Assembly (NCBI GenBank): GCA_963850305.1
Contig: CAWKKR010000005.1
Location: 32,001-96,000 of the forward strand
Source of the DNA: an uncultured delta proteobacterium
Lineage (GTDB): Bacteria; Myxococcota_A; Polyangia; Polyangiales; Polyangiaceae
Direction: 5' to 3'
DNA: 64,000 nt
In this document: one piece after another, positions 36,073 through 61,124 of the stretch
Layout: each line of letters opens with the position of its first letter
Position numbering within the stretch: position 1 is the stretch's first letter
The notes under the pieces: generated by a model
What the model was told of the DNA's origin: nothing
The model's input: the letters and a program-made list of their open reading frames with translations, nothing else
Database searches by the model: none
Position numbers and translations under genes: made by a program

Positions 36073-36082
36073 GTTCGTCTCC

Positions 36083-39000
36083 TTACACCGCTTCTTCGAG
36101 AAGCCGGTGGATGGTGTCGGCGTGGTCGTCGTGCGTGATCGGATGCCGGAGGCAGTGCAGATCGGCTGAGGTCATCCCGGGCTTGAAGAGGATCGCGTCC
36201 TCGATGGGCTCCTTCCGGGCGTAGATGCGGACGGACTTCCGCTTCGGTGCGGATGTCCTCGCAGGATCGTTCTCCGTAACCTTCCCGACGGTGCTGAAGC
36301 ACCACCCGAGCGACGTGAGCACCTTGATGATCCGGTTCTGATCCCGCGTCTCCTGCTTCGACGTTTCGATGCTGAGCACCTCGTTCAGGATGAAGCTGAC
36401 GGTGACCTCGTTCAAGTCGGCCACGCTGTTCTCGATGGCCTCGTGCCACGGGTCTTGCTCGCCACGTTGCTGCTGGACGTTCCGGAAGAGGACGTGCTCG
36501 TCCTCCTGGTCGGGGTAGCACCGCTCGTGCTCTCGATACCGATGGACGGCTTCGGCCCAGAGCTGATCCCGATCCCGCTCGATGCCTTCGATGTCGATCT
36601 TGCCGGTCTCCCCGCAGGCGATGGGCCAGTAGCGCCGATTGCCGGTGGGGTCACGAAGGTAGCCGCCCTCGGGGTTGATGGTCGCGAAGAACATGACCTG
36701 CCTCGGCACCTGGACGTTGTGCATGCCGTACGGGGGGCGGTAGTCGTCGGTCTTCGACGTGAAGAACGCCTTGCTCGTCGCATGCTCGGCCTTGAGCAAC
36801 GACGAGGCTTCGGGCAACTCGACGAACCACCGGCCTCGGAGGGCCACCATGGCGTCCTTCGTCCCGATGGTGATCATGGTGTCGGACACCCACGACGGGT
36901 CCGGGCAGAGCGCCATGACGGCGGACGATTTCTTGATCCCCTGGTCGCCCTCGAACACGGGCACGTAGTCTGCCTGGCAGCCGGGCTCGAAGATGCGCTT
37001 CACGGCCTGCATCAATGTCCACGGGCCTACCTTCCTCGTGTAGATGCCGTCGGAGCAGCCGAGGTACGTCGTGAACCACGTGTCGAGCCGGTGAGTCCCG
37101 TCCCACACGAGCCCGCCGAGGTAGTCACGAACGGGATGCACCTTCCACTTGTCCGCGACGAGACGGGCCGCCTGGTACGCCTGCTTCGGCGTCACGGTGA
37201 TCCCCCAGAACCGCTGAAGGTAATCGACGAGCCGGTGGTCGTCGGGCTCGACCCAAGCATCCATCGTCGTGAACGGTGCCGAGGAAGACGTCTCGTTCGG
37301 CCACGGTGCCGCCGCCATCAACACGATCCTGCTCGTGAACTCACACCACGCAAGACGACCCGCCCACCGGGGATCGTGGGACACGACCGTCACGGCGTTC
37401 GAGAAGGTGGACTGGACGGCACCCTTCTTCGTGCGGTGAAGCTTCGTGCGCCACTCCGCATCCGAGTAGTCCTCGTCCATTGGCGACACGTCCCCCGAGC
37501 CGTCGTTCTCCTCCTTCGTGAGGGCGAGCAGCTTCGTCTTCGGGATCCCCGTCTTCTTCGTGAGCGCCTTCATGGACGTCGCTGCCGGACCTGCATCCGT
37601 CGAAAGGATCACCTCGACAATCTCCCGAAGCTCGTCGTCCCTCGACGTGGGGGAGCACGTCTCGATCATGTCGTCGATGAACTTCGGGTTCTCCGTGAGC
37701 TTCGACTCGACCTCGGCCTTCCTGGCTTTCTTTCCCTTCCCGACCTTCGGGATGTCGAATCCCGGGAACTCTCCGGACAGCCAGTTCACCGCTTCACGCC
37801 GGGCGTCCTGGTCGTCGATGTCCCGATGAAGGCCGAGCGTCACGACGAGGTCGATGTTCTTCCACGAACGAGCCCCGCACGTGGCGTGCTGGCACTTTAG
37901 GGATTGAACCCCGAGCTTCTCGTCCAGAAAGTCCGTGGTGTCGTCGGCACCGCATCCGGGGCATTGGGGGTGGCTCGGGTCGTGACCAAGCTCGGCGTAC
38001 ACGTCACGAATCGGGATCGTGTTCGCCAGCTCGAACGGATTCGGCCCTTGGTACTTCGTGCTTCTGGCGCTCGTCGTGGTCGTGGCAGGCCGCTTGCCGA
38101 CACCCTTCTTGGTGCCCACCTCGACCGCAGCCTGGAACCGCTGTCGTTGCTCGTCGGTGAGCTTCTGCTTCAGCCCTTCGACGAGATGCCGGAGCTGTTT
38201 AAGAGACAGCCGCTCGACCGTCTTCGAGCAGTAGATCCCGGTGAGCCGGTGAACACGGCCAAGCCCGATGTCGTTGTATCCCTTCCTCTTGAGTGTCCCG
38301 GCGGCTGGGCAGAGCCGGTTCGGATTCACAACGCTGTCGTCACCGACGACGTGCTCGTCGCTGTAGATCACGCCGACGAGCTGCACGAACGCCGTTCGAA
38401 GAGCTTTAACCTCGGGGTTCACGGGCAGCCGGTCGAGGGCTACGTGAACCTGGCAGCCGTTTCCGCTGAACAGGAAGGCGAGTGCGTTGGCGGATCCGAG
38501 GATCTCGGCGGCATCACCGAAGAGCTGGATGCCCCTCTCGCACGACGTCATCAGCTCGGTGGTCGTGGCCGACACCTTCTTGGCACCGCCTTCTCGGATC
38601 GTGTCGAGGTCGGCGTACACGGAGAGGAAGGCCACGATGTCCTTCTCGGTGGTGCCCGCTCCCGAGCCGAGGACGTGCCACGCATCCGGAGCGGCCTTCG
38701 ACAACGCAGCCGGGTTCACGAGCTGCGGGATGACGTAGAGCCCCTGGTAGCCGTACTCCCGGGCAGCCGACAGCAGAAGGGTGACGCCACCCCGGAACGT
38801 GTCCGTGTAAGCGAACCGGTGCTTCTGCTCGTCGAACCTCCGGCTCTCGTCTTTCAGGTCGGGCTCGACGATCTGAAGCTCGTAGCGTTCGCCCTCGGCC
38901 AGCCCGAGGAACCGGTGCTGCCTCTTGAAGCTCCCGGCGAGGATCTTCGCCGGGTCGATCCCCTCGGCCCTCGTTGTCGTCAGGAACGACGTGAGCCAGC

Positions 39001-39364
39001 CTCGAAGCTCGGCTTCGTGACTGGCTCGACACGGGGTGGTGGTCGGCGTGCCCGGATGAACGGAAACGTCGTCCACGACGACGGAAACGGAGCTGTCTTC
39101 CACGGCGGATGTCTCCAGAACCAACCCCGGTCGGAAGACCGAGGCTCCTGCCGAGCCGCTGGGCGAGCGGGGTTCGGCAGGGAGTTCTTCACATCCACAT
39201 CTAGGCAGCCCTGCCGCCGCAGGACTGATCCACGAAGCTCTTGCCCGAGCTGGCGTGGACGGGAAGCCGTGTGCTCCTGACGTTGAATGATACACACGCT
39301 TCCGTTCGTCGCAAGGGGCGAACTGCACGAGCCGTTCGAGTTCACGTTCACCAAGCATGAGCAC
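36083..39364 (-). CDS. AEP primase-polymerase / Zn-binding / VapE-family helicase fusion (true start probably downstream of 39280)
   Basis: YADLD, SGNGCQVH, DDSVVNPNRL..AGT; CPGC..CQHATC; HPVRDYL..WDG..RL, GDQGIKKS, YRPPYG, DPTGNRRYWP, RDQLWAEA. Confidence 0.88.
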   Translation of the reverse strand: MLMLGERELERLVQFAPCDERKRVYHSTSGAHGFPSTPARARASWISPAAAGLPRCGCEELPAEPRSPSGSAGASVFRPGLVLETSAVEDSSVSVVVDDVSVHPGTPTTTPCRASHEAELRGWLTSFLTTTRAEGIDPAKILAGSFKRQHRFLGLAEGERYELQIVEPDLKDESRRFDEQKHRFAYTDTFRGGVTLLLSAAREYGYQGLYVIPQLVNPAALSKAAPDAWHVLGSGAGTTEKDIVAFLSVYADLDTIREGGAKKVSATTTELMTSCERGIQLFGDAAEILGSANALAFLFSGNGCQVHVALDRLPVNPEVKALRTAFVQLVGVIYSDEHVVGDDSVVNPNRLCPAAGTLKRKGYNDIGLGRVHRLTGIYCSKTVERLSLKQLRHLVEGLKQKLTDEQRQRFQAAVEVGTKKGVGKRPATTTTSARSTKYQGPNPFELANTIPIRDVYAELGHDPSHPQCPGCGADDTTDFLDEKLGVQSLKCQHATCGARSWKNIDLVVTLGLHRDIDDQDARREAVNWLSGEFPGFDIPKVGKGKKARKAEVESKLTENPKFIDDMIETCSPTSRDDELREIVEVILSTDAGPAATSMKALTKKTGIPKTKLLALTKEENDGSGDVSPMDEDYSDAEWRTKLHRTKKGAVQSTFSNAVTVVSHDPRWAGRLAWCEFTSRIVLMAAAPWPNETSSSAPFTTMDAWVEPDDHRLVDYLQRFWGITVTPKQAYQAARLVADKWKVHPVRDYLGGLVWDGTHRLDTWFTTYLGCSDGIYTRKVGPWTLMQAVKRIFEPGCQADYVPVFEGDQGIKKSSAVMALCPDPSWVSDTMITIGTKDAMVALRGRWFVELPEASSLLKAEHATSKAFFTSKTDDYRPPYGMHNVQVPRQVMFFATINPEGGYLRDPTGNRRYWPIACGETGKIDIEGIERDRDQLWAEAVHRYREHERCYPDQEDEHVLFRNVQQQRGEQDPWHEAIENSVADLNEVTVSFILNEVLSIETSKQETRDQNRIIKVLTSLGWCFSTVGKVTENDPARTSAPKRKSVRIYARKEPIEDAILFKPGMTSADLHCLRHPITHDDHADTIHRLLEEAV
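39287..39314 (-). promoter_or_regulatory. sigma70-type promoter for the primase gene
   Basis: TTGCGA-16 nt (ending TG)-TATCAT on the minus strand. Confidence 0.55.
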
Positions 39365-39370
39365 CTCGGT

Positions 39371-39581
39371 GTCTACGGCGTCTACGGCACGTGCCGGAGG
39401 GCGTAGACACTCGGAGCGGCATCTTTTCCGGCCTTGTCTACATGTCTACGGTGTCTACGGGATCTTGATCACATGTAGAGAATCCGTGTTTTCGATCTCG
39501 TTGATCGGATCGATGACGATGAAGAAAGAGATCGATCCCTGGATCTCTTGAAACCGGCGTAGACGGCGTAGACACGTAGAC
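39371..39581. repeat. iteron-like GTCTAC/GTAGAC cluster, putative origin
   Basis: GTCTAC at 39371, 39380, 39436, 39444, 39453; GTAGAC at 39403, 39559, 39568, 39576. Confidence 0.8.
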
Positions 39582-39762
39582 ACCCGCCACCGGCAGCACC
39601 GGCTACGTCGGTGGTCACTTCGGCTTGTACCGGCTCCGCCGACCCGGAAACCGAACACGCACTGGCACCCGGTCGGGCAACGTCAAAAAAAGCTCGAAAC
39701 GACCGCCGGACTGCCGAAGCTCCGGAAACCGTTCACGGATGTGCCGCTGCACCGCCGATGAA

Positions 39763-39782
39763 GCTTCGATACAAATCGAAGC
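39763..39782. promoter_or_regulatory. perfect 8-4-8 inverted repeat, putative ArsR operator
   Basis: GCTTCGAT-ACAA-ATCGAAGC immediately before the ArsR start codon. Confidence 0.65.
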
Positions 39783-40049
39783 GTGATGACCACGCCGTCC
39801 GAGATCGTTGCCACCGCCGCCGTCCTCGGTGACCCGAGGAGGTTCCTGATGCTGCTCTACCTCGACGAGCCCCTCCCCATCGGGAAGCTCGCCTGCAAGG
39901 CCAACGTGAGCCCGGCAACGGCCTCGTACCACGTCGGCCGCCTCGTAGAGGTCGGGCTCGTCCATGTTCACCGTCGTGGACGACAGCACGTCGTCCGTCG
40001 TGTTCCCGCACGATGGATGTCGATCTGGCGAGCGTTCGGATCGGGATGA
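39783..40049 (+). CDS. ArsR/SmtB-family regulator
   Basis: LGDPRRFLML..LACKANVSPATASYHVGRLVEVGLV. Confidence 0.85.
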   Translation: MMTTPSEIVATAAVLGDPRRFLMLLYLDEPLPIGKLACKANVSPATASYHVGRLVEVGLVHVHRRGRQHVVRRVPARWMSIWRAFGSG

Positions 40050-40104
40050 CGGGGAATCGAACTCCCGGCGGTTGATCCGAACCCGGCTCGTCTGTATCAA
40101 GTGT

Positions 40105-40786
40105 ATGGACACCTTCGGAACGGCCCGAGCGAAACGAGCTGCGATCTACGTCCGAACCAGCACTTCGAGGGATCAGTCCCCGGCCATGCAGCTCGACGAC
40201 CTCCGCCGTCTTGCCGACCAGCGAGGCTGGACGATCACCCGGGAGTACATGGACGTCGGCGTCTCCGGCACCACCGACAAGCGGCCCGAGCTGGACAAGC
40301 TCATGGCCGACATCCGGAAGGGCGGCAAGAACGCTCCGGGCATCGTCGTCGTCTGGAGGTTCGACAGGTTCGCCCAATCCGTCCGGCACCTCGTCACGGC
40401 CCTCGAAGATTTCCGGGTTCGAGGGATCGAGTTCGTCTCCATGAAGGACGGGATCGACACGAGCACCCCGACGGGAAGGTTCACGTTCCATCTCGTGGCC
40501 GCCCTGGCCGAGATGGAGGCCGAGGTGATCCGATTCCCGAGTCCAGGCCGGAGTCGATGCAGCTCGTCGTCGTGGAGCACGTCTCGGCCGTCCTCGTGCT
40601 CACGTTGACGTAGCTCGTGCTCGTGAGCTTCTGGCCCGCCCAGGGACCTCTCGTACCTCCGTGGCCCGGAAGCTCGGCGTTGGCACGAGCACCCTCTCAC
40701 GAGCCCTCCGAGGGGCAGGAATGGGCCGACCAGAATCCCCCTCGGAAGCCGTGATCGAAACCGGCATGATCTCTCGGGTGGCGTGA
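40105..40786 (+). CDS. small serine recombinase (resolvase/invertase) with C-terminal HTH, frameshift near 40534
   Basis: YVRTST, SG..DKRPEL, WRFDRFAQS, IDTSTPTG; shifted frame continues RVQAGVDAARRRGARLGRP...VARKLGVGTSTLSR to TGA at 40786. Confidence 0.88.
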
Positions 40787-41055: not shown

Positions 41056-41496
41056 TCAGCGACGGAGCAGGAACGGAAGCACGAAAAAAAGGAACACCAG
41101 CAGCTCGATCAGAAGCGTAACTCCTGAGATCGGTCTGGGCGTCGAACCATTGTGCGCTCGCCGACGAAACAGCTTGGGCACCTGTGACCCCGCCATGCAC
41201 GAAGCGGCTCCGAGAAAGAGGACCACACCCATGGACCGACTCGGCTCGTGGAAGAACCAGCCGAGCCCAGCGACCAGACCCACGACGGAACCAATGTTCA
41301 AGGCGGCGGCAGACGAAGCGACCGAGATCGCACCGCCGATGCCAAGGCCGATTGCAACAGAAGCCAGGTAACGCCAGGTGAGCGGATACGGACTCCAGGC
41401 AATGGCGAGCAAGGCGGCGTTCAACAATACGACGATCACGAGGACCGGTTGGCCGGAAGGTTGGCCCGATCCGCCGTCTCGGTTCCCGTCGGACAC
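41056..41496 (-). CDS. multi-TM membrane protein, candidate immunity protein
   Basis: GTG start 1 nt after the teneurin-like stop; 4-5 hydrophobic segments. Confidence 0.6.
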   Translation of the reverse strand: MSDGNRDGGSGQPSGQPVLVIVVLLNAALLAIAWSPYPLTWRYLASVAIGLGIGGAISVASSAAALNIGSVVGLVAGLGWFFHEPSRSMGVVLFLGAASCMAGSQVPKLFRRRAHNGSTPRPISGVTLLIELLVFLFFVLPFLLRR

Positions 41497-41497: not shown

Positions 41498-44400
41498 TCA
41501 GAAACCCTGTCCGCCGCCCGAGGCTCCACCAGATCCACCGAGAGAACCTGTCCCCTCGGCCCCACATTGCGGACCTGGGGGAGGCGGACTCGGGGGAGGA
41601 TCGCAGCTCGGAGCGAGTCCGCAGAGGGCACAGATCGGGACGCACCCCAGCCGAATGGCATTGCACGCCCCGGCACCCTCACCCAAAGAAAGCGCGATGC
41701 ATCTGGCCACCGCCACAGACGACGCCTTCCAGCAAGCAGCACAAGCCGCACAGAGATCGTCGGTGGGACAGAGTCCCGACCGATCCGCACCGTTGACGGG
41801 GTCGTCACCTCGATAAGCGTACCGGTTCAAGCTCCGGAGCGGATCTTTCGTAGTCCACCGGCCAGTCTCCGGCTCGTAGTCTCTCGCTGAAAATCGAACG
41901 AGGCCACTGTCCGGATCGTAGAGCCCCGCCGCAAAGCCAAGCGGCTGAAAGCCAGGACTCGTATCGCCAGCAACCCTGCCCCATTCATCAACATCGAACC
42001 GCTCGGCAACCGCTCCCGTTGCCACGTTCACTACCAATCGGGGTGTCCCGATGTGATCGGTTGCGATTCGGTACAGATTTCCGGCTTGCACCATGTAGGC
42101 CGGGGCATCCAACGGAATCCGCGAGTCGGCACTTCGAAGCCTTTCCGTGAGGATGTCCGGCACACGGAGCCCCAGCCTTGTGAGCACCGTCTTGACGCTG
42201 CTCTCCTCACTCCCCGTCCCATCCGCCCAAACAAACCTGCTCACGACGTTCCCCGCCCCATCCAGTCTCCGCGACGATCCTGAGATCGTCGGCGTAGAGC
42301 CATCCCTTCACGAGCACGCCGTCGATCTTCTTCCCGACCCGCCTCCCCATGCCGTCGATGACGTAATCGATCGCCCTCCCATCTGGCAGATCGACGTGCG
42401 TCAGATTCCCGAGCGCGTCGTACGTATACGTCGTCGTCTGCCCCGAGGACGTATCCGTCTTCGTCCGGAGCGCGCCGTCCGTCGTGTACGTGTACGTCAG
42501 TGTCCCGTACGTGAGCAGCCGGTCCTGCGCGTCGTATGTCCCCGCGCTGGTCGTCCCGTGCTCGACGTCGGTGAACAGCGTCCGATTGCCGTTGGCGTCG
42601 TACGCATACGTCCTGACCGCCGCGCCATTCTCGGCGACGCTGATGAGGCGTCCGACCTGGTCGTACCCGTACTCGGTGACGGTGGTCGTGCCCTGGATGG
42701 TCTCGGTTTTCTGCTGAATGCGTCCGAGCGCATCGCGCGCGTACGAGACGCTGTACAAGTCGCTCGACCCGAACTTCGCGTCGTAGGATGCGACCTCTCC
42801 AAACTGGTCGTACGTGCGGGCGTCCGTCACTGAGCCGAGCGTCGTGGTCTGGAGGCGCGGCGCAGTCGGATCGTACGTGAGCGCCATCGAACCCGCCGGT
42901 GTCGCGACGCTGGTGACGAGGCCGTCGTTGTCGTAGCCGAGGGTAGCTTTCGTCGTGGCGTCGCCGTCGATGGTCTCTGTCGCGACTCGGAGGAAATGGT
43001 CGTAGGTGCGCGCGACGCTGCCGCTCACGGCGCCGCTCCAGGTGGTGCCCGTCAGGAGCTTTCCGTCGTATGCGTAGGCGAGATTGACGCCGTACGGGCC
43101 AGTAGCGCTGGTCAGCCTGCCGGTGGTCGCGCTGTACCCGAGCGTCTCGGTGCCGGTGGGGAGGGTCACGGTCCGCATGCGGCCCGACGAATCGTAGCCC
43201 ATCGTGACGGCGGAGCCATCGGCACGATCGACTTCCGTCGGATGGCCGTCGAGATCGTAGGCGTAGCTCGTCGTGGCAGGGCCGTTGCCGTCTCCGGTGT
43301 CGGGGGCGGTGTAGCTCTCGAGTCGGTTGTCCGGCGTGTACGAGAAGAGGTGCGAGGGTTTGCCGGGCGGCGTGACGCTCGTGAGGTTGCCGAGAGCGTC
43401 GTAACCGAAGCCGACGACCGTCCCGTCGGCGCGGTGGTGGGCGGTGACGCGCCCACGGCGTCGTGGTCGTAGGTTTCGGTCTGGCCGAGGGCGTCGGTGA
43501 CGGAGGCGAGGTTGCCGTCGAGAGTCGTAGGCGTTGGTGGTGGTGCGGGTGTCTTGAGTGATGGCCTGGAGATGGCCTCGGGGGTCGTAGAAGAAGTCGA
43601 CGGGAGCGAGGCCAGCAGTCGTGACTTCCAGTGGACGACCCTGTCCGTCCACCGCGGTTGTCGTGATGCGGCCGGCCGCGGACGTTGCCGTCTCTGTCTT
43701 CGATGGTCCGGTAAACGCCGCCACGCTCTGAAGGCCGTTGATCGCCGAACTGTCGGAGTAGCTCTGGAGGTTGAATGGATCGCTGTTGACGGTCGTCACG
43801 GATTGCGCGTCCGCGGTTGCGAGGGTGACGCCGGATGGCGTCGTGAGCGTGGTGCTGGTGGCGATGGGTCCGACCATGCCCCAGCGCGCGGAGGCGCCGA
43901 GTACGGCGGTCGTCGTCGTGCCGTCCGGGACGGTCGTGGTGCTGGTCTGCGTGGACACGTGACGCTGCCGGACGATGGGGAGGCCGTCGTCGATGACGTT
44001 GGTGTCGACGAGATCGCCAGTCGGAAGCGTCTCGGTGGAATAGGTGGCGGTGACGCCGAGCGTGGTCTGGCGCGTCACGGTGAAGCCGCTGCTGTCGGTG
44101 GTGCGGGTGAGGTTTTTGACGACGCCAGCGGGGGATTGGTCCCGAATGATATAGCCGTTGGGGTCCCAGTCGAATTGGTGGACGCCGCCGCGAGCGTCTT
44201 GCATCTGGGTCATCAGGCCATCTGGCGTGTAGGTAAACCGGCTCACGGCGCCAGCCGGGTCGGTGACTTGAGAGAGGAATCCATCGTCATCGAGCGCCAG
44301 GGAGGTGGTGTGGCCGTACGGGCCGACGATGGTGTTCGGGTTGCCGGCGAGATCGCGCTGAATGGTAGTCTGGTTGCCGTCGCCGTCGGTCACACTGACG

Positions 44401-47400
44401 AGATGGCCGTCGGAATCGTATCCGAAGCTGAACAAGGTGCCGCCCGTGAGGGCGCTCCGAGTGCGAAGATGGCGGCCGTTGGCGTCGAATTCGTACACCT
44501 GCTCGCCATCCTCGGAAGGGATGAGAATGTCCGCGGAGAGGACACCTCCCGGCAGCGGCGGATGGATGCGGCGGATCGTGTCATCCTCGAGACTCAGGAG
44601 GAGCGAGCCATCGGGAGCGAGGGTGAAGCTGAAAAAATGTCCGATGGGCGCCCGCCCTGCCGGAACGCTGTCCGGTACCGCCGCGTGCGCCACGTCCCCG
44701 GTACCGACCAGCGTGTTGATGATCCCACTCGGCGAGACGGTTCGAAGACGGAAGTTTCCCCAGTCTTCGAAATAGAGGGTGCCGTCGGGCCCTATCTCCA
44801 GGTGCTCCGGCAAAGCCAATAGGGCCTCGGTCGCGGGCCCACCATCTCCAGAGTACCCAGGCCCGGCAGCCTGGTACACGCCAGCAACGATGGAGACCTT
44901 CCCATCCGGGGACAGGCGTCCTATCAAGGCGCGCGCACTCTGAGTGAAGTACACGCTTCCGTCCGCGCCGACGGCGAGCCCGCCGTCGAGGTTGCTGTCG
45001 TTGACGACATTCGACAGGTTCGGGACCAGCGTACGGATCGTGCCGTCACAGGCGATCTGCCTCAAACCGCCTTGCACGAGCCCATCTTGGTCAAGCACGT
45101 AGACCGAGCAGTCCGGACCGGAAGCGACGGCCACGATGCTGCAGAAAGTCGCCGCCGTGGCAGGTCCCCCATCGCCGGAGTAACAGCCGTTGCTCGGGAG
45201 TTTGGGATCGACGACGCCGCCAGCGATGGTAATCATGGTTCCGTCCGCCTGAAGCCGGCGAAGGCGCGGAATGGGGACGCTCGTGGTTCTTGAGTTGACT
45301 TGGTCGGCCACCAGCAGAGTATCAGCCTGCTCACCGGTCAGAAGTGCAGAACCACAAACCCCGGCGACGCTCGCTGACGCGCCGTTGGGAGGCAGGCTGC
45401 CCGCGTCGCAGGACGCTCCTGCGGAAGGCATGATTAGCGAAACCAGTCCTGATTGAGCGTCGATCCGGTGCACGCCGGTCGCGCTACTGAAGTAGACGTC
45501 GCCGTTCGCCATCGCGACAACGGACGTGGGGGCCATCTCGGAGTAAAGCCGAGGGACACCATCGGTTACGCCTGCACCAAAGTACGGTATCCCCGCAAAC
45601 CGTTCCATGACGGCTCCGGCGGCGGCGACGTTTCGAGTCGTTCCATCTCCCTTGTACAACGTCGGTCCGTACGGGTCGTACCAGTGGTGGACGTCGACCG
45701 TCCACCCAGCGACGTCGGTTTCGCGGGCGTCCTCGGTTCCGAGGGTCATGTTCGTCGTCGTCCAGATGATGTATTCGCTGCGCGCCCGGTCCGTCGTGAG
45801 CGAGACGTTCGGCTGGGCCGAATACTGCGCGAATGCGTTGGCGACATCGGACGGCGGAGCGTAAACGGCGGGGACGATCCGCCCGACGCGCACGACAGCC
45901 GGTTGACTTCCAGTGAGCACCCGTCCGTACGCATCCTGGCCATCCCACTCGAAGACGTAGTTCTGGTTGGGTTCGGCCGGGAAGCTCTGCTGGAACGTGC
46001 GCCCCGCGACATCGACCTCCAGATCGAATCCGACCGTCGTGCTGCCAATCTCGGAGCCCGATATCGGAATGTTGATCGTGCGCGCAATCCGCCGCCCCGG
46101 AACTCGGTCGCTGCGGTAGGTCAGGTTCATGTTCGTTCCGGCGACATGGAGCGATTCGCCCATCGTCTGGTCTTGCATGCTGAGACTGGAGCCCGGCTCG
46201 TTGCACATGGCCCCAGTGCCTCCCCCTCCGGGGCCAGGGCCGGGCGAGCCGCCGGGGCCGCCGCCGCTGCCGGTCCCACCGTTTCCAGGAGGATCGTCAG
46301 GTTCGTAGGGCCAGTTCGCGTCCGCGCCGGTCCAATGCGACAGTGGCGCTCGCCAGAGCTGAGTGCCCGGCGCGTACGTCTGCGCGAGCTGTTGCCGCTC
46401 CGCGTCCGTGATCCCCATCGTGGCCAGCTCCGCGTCGCTCGCCTGTGAGCCGGATCCATCGACGCTCAGATCGGCGAGCCCGTTCATCACTGCAAGGATT
46501 TGGATGACTACACCGTTTGGCTGCGGCACCCAGCACCCGGTGATGCGATCGTATGTCCCGATGGGCACGATGGTGCCGACAGGGAAATGGAGAAAATTCT
46601 CCACGTAGAGGGGCACGGCGCGGTCGAAGGTTACCGTCGTGGCGCCCGCGGCAACGGCCTCGTCGGCGGTCAGCTCGACGGCGTAGGTATACCCTGAAGC
46701 TGCAGGCAGGACCCCCGGCATCCTCTCCGGACCCTCCGGGCCCACGGTAAACTCGGTCGCGTGCACGGTGATCGAGTCGAGCGGTTGCGAGGTGCCGTCT
46801 GGGAGCACCATCGTGGCATTCGTTCCCGGTTCGAAGAAGACGCGCGCTTGCCGCGTTCCGTCGTCATCGGACACCGGACTTCCCGCCGCGACCTGCAAGT
46901 CTGGGTTTCCGAGCGTGACGACCGTAGCCACCGGGTCTACCGCAACCAACACAACGTCCTCGAGCACGACCGAATCGTTCCAAGGGAGCGAAACCTTTCG
47001 CTGCGCGGTCAGGAATCCAGGGTTCGAGAACTGGACGATCGATTGTCCCCCGCCATTCACGACGAGGTCGTACATGCCGTCGGCGCGCGTGCGCGTGCCG
47101 CCGAGTTCCGGATGCCCTTCGATCTGTACGGCAACCCCGGATAGAGGCGCGTTGTTGGCGTCGAGCACGCGGCCTCGGACTACCGCAGCGCGGACAGGGT
47201 TGATCGTACCGGGCAGAACGCCCGTCTGGATCGGGTGATCGCCCGAGATGAGGAACGAGACGCGATCGAGGAGCGAAAGATTGGTGGTCAGGTTGACCGG
47301 CGGCGCGATCGTTGCCGGATCGGGCGGCACGACGGGGACGCAGGCGTCGGCACCGTTACAATACGCCGACGGGCCGCAGACAGTCCCGTTCGCGGCCAGG

Positions 47401-50400
47401 GGATGCGAGACGCCTCGAAGTGGGTCGCAGAGGTCCTGCGTACACGGATCTCCGTCGTCCGTGGCGACAGGTGTGCCGGATTGGCACTGACCGGCAGCGC
47501 TGCACACTTCGTTCCCGTTGCAGACATTGCCGTCCGAGCAGGAGCTGCCCGCGGGCAAAACGACGTGCGTCACTCCCGCGTTCGGATCGCAGGCGTCCGT
47601 GGTGCACGGATTGCCGTCGTCGATCGCGACGGGTTGACCCGTGCACGCGCCGCCTGCGCACGCGTCGCTCGTCGTGCACGCGTTGGCGTCGGAGCACGAG
47701 GTGCCGTCTGCAATCGCGACGTGGACGACGCCGGTCGCGGGATTGCACGAGTCGATTGTGCAGGGGTTCCCGTCGTTCGAGTCGAGCGGTGTGCCGGCCC
47801 GGCAATAGCCAGTGCCGCTGCACGTCTCGGTTCCGTTGCACTGGTTCGCATCGGCGCAGCTCGTGCCAGCTGCGGACGGAGAATGCAGGACGCCCTTGAT
47901 GGGATCGCAAGAATCGTCGGTGCACAGATTGTTGTCGGACAGGATGGGGGCCGTGCCGGGCAAACAGAGGCCGTGCGAGTCACAGATCTCGGCGCCGTTG
48001 CAGAAGTTACCGTCCGAGCAGGACGCGCCGGCAGGTGCGAGCGTGTGCGTCACGCCGAGCGCCGGATCACAGCTATCCACCGTGCACGGATCCCCGTCAT
48101 CGATGACCGGCGCGCTACCCGCCAGACAATCGCCGCTCGCGTCGCAAAGTTCCAGGCCGTTGCAGGCGTTGTCGTCGGAGCACGAAGTTCCGGCCGCTGC
48201 GAGTACGTGAGTGACCGCTCCCGATGCGGGGGCGCAAGCATCGGTCGTACAGGGATTTCCGTCGTCGACGTCGAGGGGCGTACCCGAGCAAAGGCCGCTC
48301 GTGCAGCGTTCGTGTGTCGTGCAGAAGTTGCCGTCGCTACACGCCGAGCCATCCGGGAACGGCGTGTGCGTGACGCCCTTGACGGGATCGCAAGCGTCCG
48401 CCGTACACGGATTGCCGTCGTCGACAGGGGTGGCTTCGGCGCTCGCCTGGCAGACGCCGGACTCACAGGTTTCGGTGCCGTTGCAGAGGTTGTTGTCGGG
48501 ACAGGCGGTGCCATCAGGAACGGCAACGTGCGTGACGTTGCCGCTGACGGGGTCGCACGCGTCGGCCGTGCACGGGTTGCCGTCGTCGATGCTGAGCGGG
48601 GTGCCGGCGGTGCAGGCGCCGTCGGCGCAGAGTTCGACGCCGTTGCAAGCATCGCTATCGGGACACGGGGTGCCGTCGGGGAGAGCACCGCTTCCCGAAG
48701 TGGTGCTGGTGCAGAAGGTGCCCGTGCACGAGCCGGAATTGGCGCGCGTTACGCACTGGGGCGGGAAGGAGGCGCCGGCACCCACGGTGCAAGTGCCGTT
48801 GCAGGTGCCGTCGGTGCTGGCACAAGGCGCCCCCGTGTCGGCGAGAGCGATAGCACGGGAGGCAGGGTCGCAACTATCGGCGGTGCAGTTGCAGGAAACG
48901 GTGGTGCACGGGTTGTCGTCTTCAGCGCAAACCTGCTGGCACTGGAAGAGAGCGTCGTCCTGCGACGAGCAGGCGCCGAAGATCATGTCGCACGACGTGA
49001 ACTGCGACGCCGCCGCGCAGCCCAGGAAGGACGTCGACTGCGTCGCGCACGCCCCCGTCGCAAGGTTACAGTCGCGCAGGCACTCCGAGGGATCCACGCA
49101 GCCCGCCGCTGCGAGTCCCTGACAGGCTGTCAGACACGCGGAACCCGTAGCGGGCACGCAGGCGCCGGTGGCGTCGCAGACGGAGTGGTCGTTGCAAGGA
49201 AGCCCTGGAGTGATGACGTGCGTCGGCACTCCGGAGGCGTCACAGGCATCGACGGTGCATGGGTTTCCGTCGGGAGCGGGAACGCAATGCCCGGCGGTGC
49301 ACGTCAGCGCGCGCGCGAGAGAGTCTTCGCAGCCGTTCGCAGTGAAGAGCGGAATCGAATGGCCTGCGACACTTAAGGTCTGTCCGGGGAAGCATTCCCA
49401 TTGCGGGTTCTGCCCCGCGCAGGTGAAGTATGAACTCCAGTCATCCGCGCAGCCCGGGGCTTCGGTCGCTTGCACGCAAGTCGCCAGACAGTTCGCCGGT
49501 GCGCAGCCCGCTTGGGTGAGTGACGCGCAGAGGTCGACGCACGGGACCGCTCCCGGACCTGCTTCGGCGCAGACGAAGGCGCGGTCCGACTGCTGCTCAC
49601 AGCCGTTGACGGCGAAGTTGAGCTCCCCGGTGCATTCCGTCCGAGGCGCGGGGCCCGCGCAAGCGTCGAGCGCCGCGAAGACGCTGTCGCAACCGGTCGC
49701 GGCAGAGCACACTTCGGACACGCAGTCCTGCTGGGTGAGCCCGAGGCATCCAGATCCGCTGAGGTCGGAGCAGAAGCTCGGACAACCGGAGAGCTCAGTA
49801 CAGGTGCCATCGCCATCGCAAGCCGCGTCGCTGCCGCACGCGGTCCCCACGCAAGCGGGCGCGTGGGTCGTACCCGTGGTCGGATCGCAGGTGTCGATGG
49901 TGCACGGGTTGCCGTCGTCGACCGCGACGCACCCACCGCTCGTCGTGCAGGTCGCGAGAATCGCTGAACGCGCCGTCGCATCCGGCAACGGTGAAGGGCG
50001 CCGGACCTCCGGGCGTGCACGTGACAGCCGGCGTCACGCCCGCGCATTGGTTCAATTCTTGTAGCGTGCTGCCGCACGCGCCGGACGCGCTCGCCGAGCA
50101 ATACTGGGCATCGCACGCAGCCTGAGTGAGGCCCGGCACGCATCCCGCCGCGACGACGGCGGAGCAGATCCCATCGCACCCCCCTATGTCGACACACGCG
50201 CCCGTGGCGTCGCAGACACGATTGTCGAGGCAGGGACTGCCGGTCGCAGCGGGTGTATGCGTCGTCGCTCCGCTGGTCGGATCGCAGGTATCGACGGTGC
50301 ACGGGTTGCCGTCGTCGGCAGGCGTGCAAGCGCCGGTCGCGCATGCGAAGGTTTGCTGGACCTGCGTCGCGCAGCCATTCACCGAGAAGGACGCGACGCC

Positions 50401-53400
50401 GCCCGACGCGCAGGTCACTTGTGGCGCCGAGCCGGCGCATTGAAGTAGTGCGCCGAGGCTGCTCGAGCACGGCGCGCTCGCCGCGGGACCGACGCAGGTG
50501 TTGAAGCAATCGGTCTCGGATGAACAGCCGGCGGCGGCGACGGCCGTGCAGAGATCGGCGCAGCCGGTAGCGCCGGGCCCGCCGTCTTCGCACGCGGCGA
50601 GCTCGAGCGCGCTCGTGTCGCAGCCTTGAATCGTGTATCCGAGCGGGCCGCCACACGCAACGGCGGGCGTCGACCCGGCGCACGTCGTCAATGCCGTCAG
50701 CGCGCTGCCGCAACTCGATGCTGTGGAGCCCTGGCAGAGCGACGCTTCGCAGTCGGACTCCGAGAAAACGCCGGGGCAGCCCGCGGCCGCAATCGCCGTG
50801 CAGGTGGTCTTGCAGCCGGGGACGTTCTTGCAGTCGCCGTCGCCGTCGCAGGTCGCGTTGTCGCCGCAGGACGTGCCGGCCGCGACTGGTAAATGCTGCG
50901 GGCCGTTCACGGGGTCGCACGTGTCGAGCGTGCAAGGGTTCGCGTCGCCGAAGACCGGGCACGGATTTCCTTCGGCGTCGCACGCAAGGTTCGCCTGGAG
51001 CTGCTGTTCGCACCCGACCACCGTGAACGGCGCGCTCCCCCCAGTCGTGCACGTCACGGTCGGGGTCGAGCCCGTGCAAGCCGTCAGGGCCGCGAACTCG
51101 GTCTGACAGGTGCCGCTTGCTGGGAGCGTGGCGCACTCGCCGAGGCACTGGTCCGTCATGAGGCCGCAGTTCGCGACCGCTTCCGCCGAGCACAGAATCC
51201 GCGCAGCCCGGAACGTCGCCGCCGAGCACCTGGCACGCATGCACGGCCGCGGCTTCACGCTCGCAGCCGGTGACCGAGAACCCCAGATCGCCGCTGCAAG
51301 AGATCGCGGGGGAAGTTCCGGCACAGGCGACGAGCGCCGCGATGTCGTCCCCGCATTGCACGGCGGTCTGCTGGGAGTCGAGCACGTCTTCGCAGTCGAG
51401 CCCGGTCGTCGAGCATCCGGCGCTCCCGACGGCGTTGCACAGCGTTGCCCCGGTCGCGACGCGCCCTTCTTTTTGACATGCGGTCAGGGCGAATTGCTTC
51501 GCGTCGCAACCGGTCACCGTGAACCCGGAGCTCCCGCCGCACGTTACTGTCGGCGAGGAGCCCGCACAGGAAACGGAATCCGAGAGCGGCGCGGCGCAGG
51601 TGGCGTCTTCGGTCCCAGGACAGAGCGAACTCTGGCATCCGTTCGCGTCGAGACCGGCGCCGCAGTTTGCGGACGCGACCGCCGAGCACAAGGACGAGCA
51701 CCCCGCCTGCACCTGGCAGATGCCTGAAGCATCGCACGTGCGGCCGAGGCCACACGCCGTGCCCGAAGGCAGGGGCGCGTGCGTGATGCCGTGCGCCGGG
51801 TCGCACGCATCGGCGGTACAAGGGTTACCATCGTCCGTGTTCACAGCGCCGAGCGAGAGGCATTCGCCGGTCAGATCGCAGAACTCGCTCCCGTTGCACG
51901 GGTTACCGTCCGAGCACGGCGCCCCATTCGCAAGTGGCGCGTGCATCGCGCCCGTCGCGGGATCGCACGAGTCCGCCGTGCAAGGATTGCCGTCGTCGAT
52001 GGCTACGGGAGTGCCGAGTTCGCACGTGCCGTTCGCATCGCAGAGTTCCAGGCCGTTGCACGCGTTGCCGTCGGAGCACGACGTCCCGGCGGCGACAGGC
52101 ACGTGGGCGACTCCGATCACGGGGTCGCACGAATCCGCGGTGCAGGGGTTTCCATCATCGATGACCGGCGGCGTCCCGGCCGTACAAGTGCCGGTTGCGC
52201 TGCACGTCTCGGAGCCATTGCAGGCATTGCCGTCGGAGCAAGAGGTTCCGAAGGAGACTGGCGTGTGCGTGACGCCGGTCGCCGGATCGCAGCTGTCGAC
52301 CGTGCATGGATTGCCGTCGTCAACGACGGGTGGCGTCCCAGCGGTACAAGTGCCCGTTGCGTTGCACGTCTCGGAGCCGTTACAGGCGTTTCCGTCGGAG
52401 CAAGAGGTCCCGGCGGACACAGGGGTGTGGGTGACTCCGACGGTCATGTCGCAAGCGTCCACGGTGCAGGGATTTGCGTCATCTACCGTGGGCGGCGTAC
52501 CGGCGCCGCACTGACCCGTCGTACCGCACGTTTCTGCTCCGTTGCAGGCGTTGCCATCCGAGCACGACGTGCCCGTAGCGACAGGCGCGTGCGCGCAGGC
52601 CCCCGACGCACACGTGTCTACTGTGCACGGGTTCGAATCGTCGCAAGACGTGGCGCCGCAGGTCGTGGACGAGAAACCGTCTTGGAATGTCGTCACCGAC
52701 CCCGTGCCCACGTCGACATCGCGAGCGAAGAACGCGCCCGTCAGGACGTCGCCCGTACCGACTACCAACGTGCCGTTCGCCACCAACACCAGCGCTTGGA
52801 CCTGGTTCCCGTCGCCGAACGCTGCCGCCTTCGGTGTCGCCGAAAGGGTGCCGCTTGTTCCGTTGATGCCCGATACCTCGACCTGGATACCGCTCGCACT
52901 GAGTGCTGGCGACGCCGGGCCGAGGAACGCGCCGCTGCCCATGCTCCACCGACCTGCCACGTGGATCTGCACGGCGCCCAGAGCCTGGACGCGAGCCCCC
53001 GCGCCAACCGTGACGCTTGCGACCTCGTAGAGCCCTGGTCCGAGTCCAAGAGTACTGCCAGCGTTCACCGTGACGTCTGCGTAGCGTCCTGGTGACGCGA
53101 CGACGGTCCCGCTTCCGACCATCAAGTTCGAGGTTCCCGCCGTTACCGCTGAGACCGCGGGCAATGCCGGTAGCTGCACCAGCGCTGTCACTCCACCGTG
53201 AATCGAGCCGGCGGCGGAAGAAAACTGAGCGGTCTGAACGTCACCCACGACCGCCCCTGATCCGAGGTGGACTGAATTCGCGATGAGATTTTGCGTCTTA
53301 TCGACGACAGCCCCTGCGAGCGTATCGATCGAGACGCCACCTGACAGGAAGGGCCCCGCGCCTGCACCGAGCGCCCCGATGTCGCCCGCGTGGAGGACGC

Positions 53401-53533
53401 TCCCCGATTGAAGGCGTACGCTGTTCGACGCTTCGATGACGAAGTCCGACGTCTTCGGAAAGCACGCGCACATCGGCGCACTTGGCCGACGTTCAGCGCT
53501 CGGTAGTTGCGCAGTTGCCCGGTCATCGGGCAC
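41498..53533 (-). CDS. giant teneurin-like protein (beta-solenoid, Cys-rich repeats, FN-plug, NHL, YD/RHS shell, C-terminal tip), about 4000 aa, split by frameshifts
   Basis: Joins ORFs 49373-53533, 49795-51324, 42207-49988 and 41498-42244 (shifts near 51200, 49960, 43480, 42260); RGRVLD..G.TRTRADGMYDLVVNGGG..LPWN, NHL YSGDGGPA, YD repeats, RHS core GLYDPDSGLVRF.ARDY.PETGRW..KDP. Start codon uncertain. Confidence 0.88.
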
Positions 53534-55193: not shown

Positions 55194-55620
55194 TTAGAGT
55201 TCACGAGGGCATGAAGGCACGGTGGGCTTCTGAAACGGGCGCGCCTCCTGCTCGGTGTTCTGTGCGTGGGGTGCGCGCTTCAGCGGAGCGAAGAGGCGTG
55301 TGGGGTCGAGTACCGCTTCCGTGGCGCCGAGGGGTACGGGGAGACGAGGTGCGTCGATCCCGTGATCTCCTTCCGCCGCGGTGGCCCTTGTCTTTGCGAC
55401 CACCTGGATGGACGGTGGCGTGGTCGCACGCCTGGTACTCCCGCCCACCTCGGTGGTCGTCGTGCACGCGGAGTTCCCGGCTACGGTGGCCGGCGACTCC
55501 GGCACCACGCTCTTCCTCCACGACGAGTGCGGGCCGAGGATGCCATGGAATCGTAGTAGCGGATGACGCGGTGGAGGAATCAAAGCCGAAAGGCGCGCGA
55601 GCGGCTCGACCGGATCCATC
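55194..55620 (-). pseudogene. IS91-family-like transposase C-terminal remnant
   Basis: MDPVEPLARLSALIPPPRHPLLRFHGILGPHSSWRKSVVP. Confidence 0.65.
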
Positions 55621-55899
55621 ACGCGATGGCCGCACGTCTCGATAGTTTGCAAGTGCTGCATCGAGCAGATCTTGCAGCAGCGGCGCGGCGTTGTTCTTGA
55701 CTCTGCACGCATGGTGAGATTGGCCGTTGCTGAGCTCGAGTTTGCCGACACTCGCTTCCCGCACGTGCTCGCCGCGGCGCTGGATGGGAAGGGGGCGGTG
55801 CGCGCGTGCAGGGATTCGAGCCATTTTCGGGACCGTGCGCCTGCCGTCGATCGGGGAAATGGATGCGAGCAGCAGACGGTAGGATACTCCCCGGTCAAC

Positions 55900-56786
55900 G
55901 ACTGGATCGCGCGCCGGGCCAGCGATCAGCGTCTTCGCCCTGGTCACATCGAGCGCGCGTCGCGAGTGGTACGGCTCGCGGGGTCGAACGGCGCGGCCGA
56001 GACGGAACACCTTCTCTCGCGGGTCATGGACGGCACGCTCGCGGCCGAGGGCGCGCGCCCCGGCGAGGGCCGGTCCGCTCACGACGCCGTTCGCTACGAT
56101 CTCGGTCTGATCAACGCCAGCGTCGACCTCGAGAGCGTCGTTCAAGGGCTGGAGAAGAACCGCGCGGGCACGCTCTGCCTGCACGGACCTCCGGGTACAG
56201 GGAAGACCGCTTTCGTCACGCACCTTGCCGAACGGCTCGGCGTTCCTCTCGTCACGCGGCGCGCGTCGGACCTTCTCGGCATGTACCTCGGCCAGAGTGA
56301 GCAGAACCTTGCCCGCATGTTCCGGGAGGCAGAGGCGCAGGGCGCGCTCCTGTTCCTGGACGAGGCGGACGGCTTTCTTCAGGATCGTTCGCGCGCAACT
56401 CGCACGTGGGAGGTGACCCAGGTCAACGAGCTGCTCGTCGGCATCGAGCGCTTCCCCGGCATCTTCGCGTGCGCAACGAACCTCATGGACACGCTCGACC
56501 AAGCCGTCTTCCGTCGCTTCGCGCTGAAGATCCGCTTCGAGCCCCTGAGCAGCGATGGAAGCTGCTCGCGTCGGTCCTCGACGGCATGGGCGTCACGCTG
56601 CAAACGGGAGACGACGCGCGCCGCGTGCGCGCCGAGCTGGGACGTCTCGACTCGCTCACGCCGGGGGATTTCGCGGCGGTCGTTCGGCGCGTGCGGATTC
56701 TTGGGGGCGCACCCGACGCCTCCGCTCTCGTGCGCCGGGTGAAGCCAGGGGCGGGGAAGCGGAGGATGGGATTCGGAGAGTCATGA
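55900..56786 (+). pseudogene. AAA+ ATPase, 5'-truncated, frameshift near 56550
   Basis: HGPPGTGKT, LFLDEAD, ATNLMDTLDQAVFRRF; C-terminal RRMGF in a second frame. Confidence 0.75.
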
Positions 56787-58826: not shown

Positions 58827-61124
58827 TCACCACACCACCGGCGTCGGCACGTCCCGGTTCGTCGTGGTGCGGTCGCCGACCTGACCGTAGTTGTTCGCGC
58901 CCCAGCAGCTCACGTTGCCGGTGCCGAGCAGCGCGCACGCCATGCCGATGCCTCCCACGATTTGCGCGTCCGGGGCGAGCCCGGACACCGGCGTGGGGAC
59001 GTGCCGGTCGGTGAACGTGCCGTCCGCGAGCTGTCCCTGGTTGTTGTGCCCCCAGCATTCGGCGCTCCCGTCCGTCAGAGTCGCGCAGCTGAATTCGTCC
59101 CCGACCGCGATGCGCTTGACGCCGGTCAGATTGGGCACGGCCGCGGGCGCGTACGCGGAGCTCGTCGAGTTATTTCCGAGCTCGCCGTTGGCGTTCAGAC
59201 CCCAGCAGTCGACGGTCCCGTCGCCGAGGAGCGCGCAGATGTGATTGGCCACCGCCACCTGCGTCACGGCGGTAAGACCTGGGACCGCCTGGGGCGCGAG
59301 GGCGTTGGAACCAGCGACGCCCGTGCCGATCTGACCCCACGAATTCAGACCCCAGCATTGCAGAGTGCCGTCGCTCATCAGCGCGCAGGTGTTCGACCCG
59401 CCCGCGACGATGGTCTTCACAGTGCCGGTGATGGTGACGGGCACGGGCGCGAGGTGGGGTTGCCCTGTGCCGTCGCCCACCTGGCCCCAGCTGTTGTCAC
59501 CCCAGCATTCGACTGCGCCCGTCGTGAGCAACGCGCACGAGTGATAAAACCCCGAGGTCAGCTGTGCGACGCCGCTCAATCCCGGTACCACCGCGGGCGT
59601 GCCGTGCGGTTGCCCGGTACCATCGCCGAGCTGCCCGTCCAGGTTCGTACCCCAGCACTGGACGGTTGCGTCGTTCATGAGTGCACACGTGTGCTGCGCG
59701 CCGGCCGCGATGAGCGTGACGCCTGTCAGGCCGGGGACGAGCCCAGGTTTCGCGCGGTTGTTGGTCGTGCCGTCGCCGAGCTCGCCATTCCCGTCGAAGC
59801 CCCAGGTGCTCACCGTGCCGTCGTTCAGGGTGACGAAGGGGTCGCCGTTCACCGAGAGCGCCGCCGCCGTCACGCAGGTCGAGTTGCTGCACGCCACGGC
59901 ACACGCGTGGTCGCAGGTGCCGCAGTTCTTCGCGTCGGTGTCCGGGTGCGAACAGACGTCGTGGCACATCACCGGACAGGTGCACACGCCCGCCTGACAC
60001 GTCGCGAGCGGATTGACGCCGAGGCACGTCGTGTTCACCGCGGGCTGATCGTCGATGACGCCGTTGCAGTCGTTGTCGAGGCCGTCGCACTTCGTCTCCG
60101 TGGCCTCGTAGTCGGGCGATGTATACGCGCAGGTCCACCCGGACGAGCCGCTGCACGTCGCGGTCGTCGCGCCCGCGCACACGCCGTCCGTCTTGCACGA
60201 GGGGCAGTCGACGGGATGGTCGTCGATTTTGCCGTTCACGTCGTTGTCGATGCCGTCGCACACCTCGGGGGAGGCGGCGAAGAAAGTCGCTGTTCCGAAC
60301 GCCGGTGACGAGCCCGTGGCCGCGAGCGAGAGCCCGTCCGAATTCACGCAGTAGTCGAACGCAATGCCGGACGCGGTCGTGACCTGGGTGCCGGAGACCG
60401 TTGCCGCCTCGGTGTCGTCGACCGTGAGGGTCCCTTCGATGTTGCAATCGCAGTCGCCGTCGGGGTCGCAGACCGGATCGCAGGTCGCCTTCACGCCCGC
60501 GGAGTTCAGCTGATCTGCCATCTTCGAGCACTGGCAGGCCGCGCAGTCGCCCGGGAGCGTGAGAAGCCCCGCGACCTTCACCTGCATCGAGAGACTAAGC
60601 TGTCCGTTTGCGAGCTCGAGCGACCCGGTGGTGGACTCGGGCGCCACGCCGAACACGGCCGTGCTGCACACCGAGCGCGCGTGCGTGAACAGGTCACCGA
60701 AGAGCTGCGCGGCGGAGGCGCACACGGTGCCGAGTCCCCACTTCGTGCCGTCGAGCTTGCCGCTGCACGCCGTCGGGGCGGGGCAGGTGTCGCTGTACGT
60801 GAGACCGGTCTTCGGAGTGGGCGGCAGCGTGCTGCGGTCGACGCAGGTCCCGGCATCCGCTCCCGACGACCCGCCCGCGCCCGCGGTGCCTCCGGTTCCC
60901 GTCGTCCCACCGATGCCGCCGGAACCACCGCTCGACGTCGATCCGCCGTTACCCGCCCCCGCGATGCCCGCGTCCGTCCCGCCTCGCGCGCCACCGGCGT
61001 CCCCTCCTCCGGTGCCGGAGCCGTTCTTGGAAGAACCACTCGAGCCGCATGCCGGAGCCACGGCGAGACCGAGGAGGGACAACGTGACCGTTGCGAGCGT
61101 CGCGCGAGCGCCGAAGTAAGCCAT
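58827..61124 (-). CDS. RCC1-repeat lipoprotein with Cys-rich repeats
   Basis: Lipobox APAC, Gly-rich linker, CDGIDND/CDGLDNDCNG repeats, six to seven CWG.N..GQ(L/V)G RCC1 repeats. Confidence 0.88.
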   Translation of the reverse strand: MAYFGARATLATVTLSLLGLAVAPACGSSGSSKNGSGTGGGDAGGARGGTDAGIAGAGNGGSTSSGGSGGIGGTTGTGGTAGAGGSSGADAGTCVDRSTLPPTPKTGLTYSDTCPAPTACSGKLDGTKWGLGTVCASAAQLFGDLFTHARSVCSTAVFGVAPESTTGSLELANGQLSLSMQVKVAGLLTLPGDCAACQCSKMADQLNSAGVKATCDPVCDPDGDCDCNIEGTLTVDDTEAATVSGTQVTTASGIAFDYCVNSDGLSLAATGSSPAFGTATFFAASPEVCDGIDNDVNGKIDDHPVDCPSCKTDGVCAGATTATCSGSSGWTCAYTSPDYEATETKCDGLDNDCNGVIDDQPAVNTTCLGVNPLATCQAGVCTCPVMCHDVCSHPDTDAKNCGTCDHACAVACSNSTCVTAAALSVNGDPFVTLNDGTVSTWGFDGNGELGDGTTNNRAKPGLVPGLTGVTLIAAGAQHTCALMNDATVQCWGTNLDGQLGDGTGQPHGTPAVVPGLSGVAQLTSGFYHSCALLTTGAVECWGDNSWGQVGDGTGQPHLAPVPVTITGTVKTIVAGGSNTCALMSDGTLQCWGLNSWGQIGTGVAGSNALAPQAVPGLTAVTQVAVANHICALLGDGTVDCWGLNANGELGNNSTSSAYAPAAVPNLTGVKRIAVGDEFSCATLTDGSAECWGHNNQGQLADGTFTDRHVPTPVSGLAPDAQIVGGIGMACALLGTGNVSCWGANNYGQVGDRTTTNRDVPTPVVW

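Follow-up and report, generated by a model that had tools for sequence, protein, structure and literature searches.

The 64-kb window analyzed here (the whole stretch of DNA, G000:C5:32001-96000, from a genome of 6.26 Mb in 11 contigs) carries on its minus strand, at 53533-41498, a coding stretch of about 4,011 codons. Its product combines an N-terminal solenoid, a cysteine-rich stalk, a core of the kind found in teneurin-like proteins (TLPs) and a short C-terminal cargo (Table 1). The initial annotation, made from the sequence alone, had joined four open reading frame (ORF) pieces here into one gene of ~12 kb. The coding stretch held up; the piece count did not, as a compensating pair of frame changes had been overlooked, and there are six pieces with five frame changes. 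Every coding piece is free of in-frame stops, and none of the roughly 4,000 codons is a nonsense codon. We infer that the six pieces are one gene in the living cell.

Judged by its sequence, the C-terminal half is a bacterial TLP. Pfam domains follow in the order TTR_TEN1-4, FN-plug, TEN_NHL, TEN_YD-shell, and RHS_repeat, and NCBIfam identified Rhs_assc_core, in agreement with the NHL, YD-shell, and RHS-core assignments of the initial annotation. The FN-plug score of 27.0 bits is just below the cut-off of 27.8. The teneurin superfold proposed earlier is borne out by this succession (FN-plug, NHL, and YD shell in order, with TTR and then TIP also present) and by sequence matches in the PDB. The best of these were to BiTLP of Bacillus inaquosorum (9IFO and 9PT5; E 1e-261), followed by animal teneurins (from 4e-64, for teneurin-3, to 6e-43) and then by type VI secretion system Rhs proteins. 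A signature RGRVLD..LPWN noted at the outset is present (RGRVLD at 47177, TRADGMYDLVVNGGG at 47090, LPWN at 46988), but it marks the TTR domain, not the FN-plug. The alignment places a Cys of the FN-plug five residues ahead of the Ser of a Gly-Ser pair, in register with the BiTLP site, where C719 precedes cleavage at G723/S724 (Raoelijaona et al. 2026; PMC13018210). Compared with the bipartite DPxG motif, the RHS core keeps the Arg and both Asp, and the second motif is non-standard.

Table 1. Features of the TLP gene and the ORF downstream of it, in window coordinates.
Feature	Position	Strand	Evidence or remarks
Apparent 5' end, GTG at 53533, 25 residues	53459..53533	-	without hydrophobic signal or lipobox
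Beta-solenoid, predicted ice-binding-protein (DUF3494-type) fold	52664..53458	-	AlphaFold model, predicted local distance difference test (pLDDT) 93
Stalk block 1: six Dicty_CTDC-type units of 53-54 amino acids (aa), 6 Cys each (one with 7)	51710..52663	-	
Stalk middle: nine ~83-aa helical 8-Cys domains interleaved with four Dicty_CTDC-type units	48921..51703	-	interrupted by frame changes at about 51200 and 49975
Stalk block 2: eight Dicty_CTDC-type units of 51-55 aa and one variant unit	47331..48920	-	
Linker, TTR domain (46947-47201), TIP domain	46308..47330	-	PF25020 E 2e-27, 97.6 bits; continuous alignment to BiTLP 360-935
FN-plug, conserved Cys (at 46205) and Gly-Ser cleavage site at start	45650..46210	-	PF24329 E 5e-6; aligns with BiTLP site
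NHL beta-propeller, limits approximate	44560..45650	-	PF25021 E 6e-14
YD shell	41990..44520	-	PF25023, PF05593; compensating frame changes near 43520/43460, another near 42265
RHS core, Arg (41884) and Asp (41845, 41785) conserved	41771..41990	-	TIGR03696 above cut-off
C-terminal cargo, 90 aa, 11 Cys, first 56 residues hydrophobic, Pro/Gly tail	41498..41770	-	candidate membrane-acting toxin
ORF of 146 aa, several hydrophobic segments, start one base after TLP stop	41056..41496	-	candidate immunity protein

TLPs have been described as polymorphic toxins present in over 20% of Myxococcota (PMC13018210). By that description they contain a TIP domain and cleave themselves at two sites; the cargo measures about 15 kDa, and an immunity gene lies downstream. 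The window protein shares with BiTLP the TTR-TIP-FN-plug-NHL-YD-RHS core order, the FN-plug Cys and Gly-Ser site, the Arg and two Asp, a variable cargo of ~10 kDa, and a small downstream gene. Its N-terminus, however, measures about 2,070 aa against about 400 aa of Ig domains in BiTLP, and it differs further in being disulfide-rich, with no visible signal, a shorter autoprotease loop, and an 11-Cys cargo.

The stalk (52663-47331) spans about 1,776 aa, shorter than the ~2000 aa first estimated, and contains 213 Cys (12%). In total it comprises 27 Cys modules, namely 18 Dicty_CTDC-type units, mostly at 51-55 aa spacing with 6 Cys each, and 9 helical 8-Cys domains. By Pfam score, the former belong to PF00526 (Dicty_CTDC), with 115.7, 36, and 120 bits for the three stalk pieces against a cut-off of 27; here they form units of 54 aa and 6 Cys, among which a second, unnamed domain is interspersed. 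The repeat family D-x-x-(N/D)-P-C-T-x-D-x-C of the initial annotation is real, though less numerous than the 19 or so copies given: the strict motif D-x(1,2)-[ND]-P-C-T-x-D-x-C occurs 17 times and the looser D-x-[ND]-x-C-T-x-D-x-C 18 times, with neither found in any of 1000 shuffles. Further loci with Dicty-type units lie elsewhere in the same genome (G000:C1 near 722000, 807000, and 855000; C3 near 98000; C8 near 1640000 and 464600), as does a 131-aa frame that contains just one helical 8-Cys domain. Literature searches on Dicty_CTDC with myxobacteria, or on PF00526 in bacteria, found nothing bearing on the stalk in the text accessible to them.

The second Cys repeat family, also recognized earlier, has nine copies; their alignment defines a domain of ~83 aa in which 7 Cys are invariant and an eighth is almost so. 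The domain is modeled as a short hairpin and four helices (pLDDT 78). A profile of this unnamed domain matched 131 clusters (50% identity) among 1.84 billion representatives, with a median length of 211 aa. These are mostly small lipoprotein-like proteins; a lipobox-like start was detected in 67 of the 131 by a crude pattern, and 59 of the 68 best clusters have no Pfam family. Of 120 genomes from the same family, 35 contain the domain, for the most part in short frames; none of the 89 TLP loci measured below does. Matches to the mixed stalk, at 44-48%, came from two fragments, P0028 and P0029. Structural comparison gave no Foldseek match at E<=0.001, a best Z of 3.5 among 48,161 chains, and no usable Atlas match, a result that does not in itself make the fold new.

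Shorter Cys-rich segments of this kind are already on record. Dicty_CTDC is named among TLP N-terminal modules in a supplementary legend (Supplementary Fig. 1c), and the string DGNPCT occurs six times in the supplementary alignments of the same paper (PMC13018210). Copy 1 of the Sorangium cellulosum So ce836 TLP (2,106 aa; PMC13018210 supplement) is alike in its lipoprotein-like start and in a 54-aa Dicty_CTDC unit directly before linker-TTR, but it has about two Dicty units and, in the rows examined, no solenoid or helical 8-Cys domain, against the 18 + 9 modules and solenoid of the window protein. As both are already in published data, no novelty attaches to the TLP family or to the presence of a Cys-rich segment before TTR. 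Relative to the published material available, what is new in the window protein is its size of 27 modules, the second (helical 8-Cys) repeat, and the ice-binding-fold solenoid.

The Gly/Val beta-solenoid-like domain described at the N-terminus is confirmed as an all-beta solenoid by its predicted model. This model aligned with the ice-binding protein FfIBP (4NU2) at a VIA-align Z of 20.4 (root-mean-square deviation 2.6, 191 residues aligned) with only about 19% identity, and with the pilin ComZ (6QVI) at Z 16.6; the next unrelated fold scored Z 9.8. The flanking helix and returning terminal strand of DUF3494-type folds are both present in the model. The solenoid of the window protein has no Pfam match, and its homologue P0007 scores above the cut-off for PF20597, a family that shares the fold. 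As modeled, the solenoid has a DUF3494-type ice-binding fold, and fold likeness alone does not show ice binding; a surface- or polymer-binding role is probable. The 21 solenoid homologues listed occur on varied secreted proteins, mostly directly after a lipoprotein-like signal and ahead of Cys repeats like those of the window protein, and two of them have TTR as well. In the close homologues, the signal mostly lies 30-65 residues ahead of the domain. A literature search combining DUF3494, adhesin, and myxobacteria found nothing.

At the other end of the protein, the 90-aa tail is small and unlike the tails of relatives, in line with the variable C-terminal cargo of TLPs. BiTLP carries a hydrophobic 92-aa peptide that permeabilizes E. 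coli membranes and is disulfide-linked to the FN-plug, and nearly every TLP gene has an immunity gene after it (PMC13018210). By analogy with that cargo, the 90-aa tail and the 146-aa ORF may be a membrane-acting toxin and its membrane immunity protein, and the odd eleventh Cys of the cargo could be a tether to the FN-plug. The tail of L022, a related locus, is likewise Cys-rich (78 aa, 11 Cys). For the 146-aa ORF there was no Pfam or NCBIfam match, and the best Atlas match (0.86) is a lead at most. A predicted complex of cargo and 146-aa ORF scored 0.00 with the fold of the partner uncertain, and so is not evidence either way.

We then examined the distribution of related architectures. Only one TTR match was found in the genome of the window, and 16 of the 41 genomes searched (this one included) have one. 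For a scan of contigs for TLPs, a single-sequence query gave 78 pattern matches and none confirmed; a later alignment query gave at least 551 confirmed of 600 pattern matches, of which 80 were kept. The best match among those listed, at 61%, was locus L051 in a Polyangiaceae genome, and the taxon proposed here for the window is based on it. With L051 dropped as a duplicate of L022, 89 TLP loci were measured (10 from relatives and 79 from the contig scan). At least 50 Cys ahead of TTR were counted in four of them (L021, 147; L023, 68; L022, 66; L106, 50), with Cys counted back to the nearest stop, so that broken or cut frames are under-counted. In both L021 and L023, the solenoid, Cys stalk, and TTR lie in unbroken frames. 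L021:6758-19999, together with L031 (G019:C145), presents a 4,608-aa open frame with a complete TLP, including solenoid and 147-Cys stalk, and then a second long YD/RHS stretch that runs to the contig end and beyond. L022 is the sister of the window sequence (same genus, support 99 on a quick tree) and carries two LamG domains, an Ig domain, and 8 Dicty units. Because LamG and Ig stand there in place of the solenoid, the N-terminal head appears exchangeable.

The best intact models are two TLPs of G135, a genome of the same family. One is an unbroken 3,072-aa frame that opens with a lipobox-like start and continues with a solenoid (32% identity), a single helical 8-Cys domain, Dicty units numbering 7, TTR-TIP (48%), and an RHS core; the second copy is partial and has the same module order. 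Their loci (L163:6109-15324, minus strand, and L164:2-2557, plus strand) both have the solenoid, helical 8-Cys domain, and Dicty units. Two separate genes in the window were considered and rejected, as G135 carries the whole module order in one frame. Cys-stalk TLPs need three changes on the quick tree, with which a single origin is compatible.

A different Cys-containing motif was seen in short TLPs of relatives. In 3 of 88 TLP N-termini (L024:6288-6830, plus strand; L026 near 10590; L028 near 7890), the segment before linker-TTR matches the calcium-binding C-rich domain of teneurin-4 (7PLP, E 4e-4). Residues 4-151 of L024 align in one stretch to teneurin-2 468-628 (E 1e-18), across C-rich, linker, and TTR; BiTLP aligns to L024 only from residue 37. 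As we read the alignment, the L024 motif appears to keep all eight acidic calcium ligands and the Asn described in PMC9058538, and four of six Cys. A likeness of the C-rich motif to bacterial metal-binding motifs has already been noted (PMC6425310). No mention of the motif within bacterial TLPs was found in the accessible parts of the literature searched, and six literal motif strings had no match in the gapped supplementary alignment of PMC13018210, a weak negative. The motif is absent from the window protein. Its presence in relatives is relevant to the question of which segments of the teneurin ectodomain have a bacterial source, and it may reflect independent recruitment of a common myxobacterial motif; the published tree favors Paenibacillaceae TLPs as nearest to animal teneurins (PMC13018210). 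We put forward only tentatively that Polyangiaceae-type myxobacteria have a subfamily of long-reach, lipid-tethered TLPs built from disulfide modules that can replace one another (solenoid or LamG, helical 8-Cys, Dicty), in a lineage that also has C-rich TLPs. On that view, animal teneurins would owe their C-rich-linker-TTR unit to bacteria, and the Cys-rich spacer ahead of it would be older than the fusion to a eukaryotic membrane receptor.

The five frame changes of the TLP gene, which lie in short single-base or two-base runs, are probably assembly errors. A background rate was obtained from 334 reference frames, 127 of which had an orthologue at >=55% identity. Ordinary genes of the same assembly showed 5 frame changes in 54 genes and 6 in 73 genes, or 11 in 174.7 kb, with 10 of the 127 orthologous genes hit; in-frame stop counts from this survey were left unused, the reference frames having run stop to stop. 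Within the window, at 24730-27175 on the plus strand, a gene matching Pfam PPDK_N and PEP-utilizers_C, which we take to be of PEP-synthase type, has at least four frame changes in 2.45 kb, probably six. This housekeeping gene is probably a marker of local assembly error, and as it is shifted more densely than the TLP gene, local accuracy appears poor. A Markov frame model detected its shifts but missed those of the TLP gene and therefore under-counts; a GC-frame plot of the window was too noisy for use. In the TLP core, 25 of 245 conserved positions (10.2%) are altered relative to the consensus, compared with 7.9% in L022, 11.5% in L023, and a range of 0.8-22.3% over 40 relatives.

Taken together, we favor, with some but not strong confidence, a single gene of a Polyangiaceae-type myxobacterium that encodes a stalked teneurin-like polymorphic toxin, a tethered contact toxin, and whose frame was disrupted by single-base errors during assembly. 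The protein would be exported and anchored by lipid at its N-terminus, as its intact relatives suggest. Given such an anchor, the solenoid would lie closest to the anchored end and the capsule farthest from it; the solenoid as distal tip was considered and rejected on this ground. Near the cell or vesicle surface, the ice-binding-fold solenoid might grip a matrix polymer or surface. The disulfide-locked repeats, drawn from a pool of modules apparently used elsewhere in the same genome, would form a protease-resistant spacer, perhaps 50-100 nm if extended (an estimate from module counts), that presents the YD capsule to neighboring cells. Self-cleavage at the FN-plug and RHS core would release the 90-aa cargo, possibly still attached, as in BiTLP, to the Cys of the FN-plug by way of its odd eleventh Cys. 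The cargo would damage the membrane of non-kin or prey bacteria, and the downstream membrane protein would shield the producer and its kin. The suggestion in the initial annotation of a surface adhesin or contact-dependent toxin in a social or predatory organism is consistent with the published family (PMC13018210) and with the best match in a Polyangiaceae genome. How TLPs travel to and into target cells is a question left open in PMC13018210, and a long, rigid-looking spacer bears on it. With between 2 and 27 spacer modules, intact copies from the same family offer a natural series in which to ask if TLPs serve as tethered contact weapons and if the number of modules determines their reach.

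Several observations weigh against a tethered toxin. No signal peptide or transmembrane segment, which the initial annotation had proposed to look for, was found upstream of 53533 in three frames. A concealed signal peptide was also sought with short words, with no significant result; immediately ahead of the solenoid, an ALNV in another frame is similar to the homologues, again without significance. The export signal may be hidden by assembly errors. Most Gram-negative TLPs have a Sec/SPII signal and some members have none (PMC13018210), so that such a signal is typical rather than defining. The RHS autoprotease has an Asp-Asp spacing of 20. Among 41 relatives, 32 have a spacing of 24, 8 have 23, and one has 30, and the difference is unexplained by single-base slips. 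The cargo has no enzyme motif, and the search for its homologues returned only the cargo itself among 66 candidates, which is weak evidence. In the published work, cargo delivery by TLPs is unresolved and only three of nine tested cargoes inhibited E. coli (PMC13018210). The frame changes exceed the genome-wide rate, by which 0.76 are expected in 12 kb (P 0.04 for 3, the number that the orthologue method would see, and 0.001 for 5), and the flanks contain mobile-element remnants (an ISCR transposase fragment, a resolvase, and a VapE-like gene). Some of these points would suit an intact gene that encodes mainly a long adhesin or kin-recognition receptor, in which the cargo is unreleased or non-toxic and the NHL, TIP, or solenoid mediate cell-cell or cell-matrix contact, paralleling the loss of cleavage in animal teneurins. 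The short Asp-Asp spacing, the non-standard second motif, and the lone cargo would fit this, as would an adhesin-type solenoid, the presence of stalk and solenoid modules on non-toxin lipoproteins, and the communication role left open by PMC13018210. We nevertheless regard it as unlikely, given that the Arg, both Asp, and the FN-plug Cys and Gly-Ser site are retained, that a hydrophobic ORF lies directly downstream, where immunity genes sit, and that cargo tails vary among relatives as in polymorphic toxins.

Slightly less likely again is a real, recent pseudogene that lost its 5' end with the signal peptide and accumulated frameshifts in a mobile-element-scarred region. It would account for the excess of frame changes, for the missing signal peptide that close solenoid homologues mostly have, for the in-frame shortening in the RHS core, and for the transposase and resolvase fragments nearby; the lack of any nonsense codon, a loss of conserved residues that is not in excess, the denser shifts of the housekeeping gene, and the location of the breaks in short runs all speak against it. 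A further alternative makes the stalk homologous to the EGF array of animal teneurins, with the window architecture as their direct precursor. Teneurins TEN2, TEN3, TEN4, and Ten-m share linker-TTR and the superfold with the window protein and have a Cys-rich spacer at the same position, which bacterial Ig domains of TLPs have also been remarked to occupy (PMC6425310); the initial annotation was thus right about the place. Six Cys per unit and the teneurin-type C-rich motif in short TLPs of relatives are in keeping with kinship, but no Pfam EGF match was found at E<=0.01 and no PDB teneurin match at E<=1 for 457 stalk residues, and EGF homology of the stalk was rejected for these reasons. The likeness is therefore, at the level of sequence, analogy. 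The window protein also differs from animal teneurins in having no intracellular domain, transmembrane segment, C-rich domain, ABD, or Tox-GHH (Pfam, PDB), whereas TIP is present and the cleavage residues are kept. Considering as well the Paenibacillaceae placement in the published tree and the three changes needed by Cys-stalk TLPs, we find direct precursorship very improbable.

No tRNA or tmRNA was found in the 64-kb window. Just downstream of the TLP gene, the region 34919-40608 contains a VapE-like gene of 1,093 aa on the minus strand, two unannotated ORFs, and a truncated serine resolvase, and is a remnant of a phage-like or integrative element. On the other side, at 55194-56742, the ISCR-type transposase fragment overlaps, on the opposite strand, the end of an AAA ATPase gene with a frame change. 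Finally, the minus strand at 58827-61124 encodes a 765-aa protein with an RCC1-type propeller, a Cys-rich part, and a weak match to a MopE-type motif, which is another myxobacterial stalk-and-head protein.

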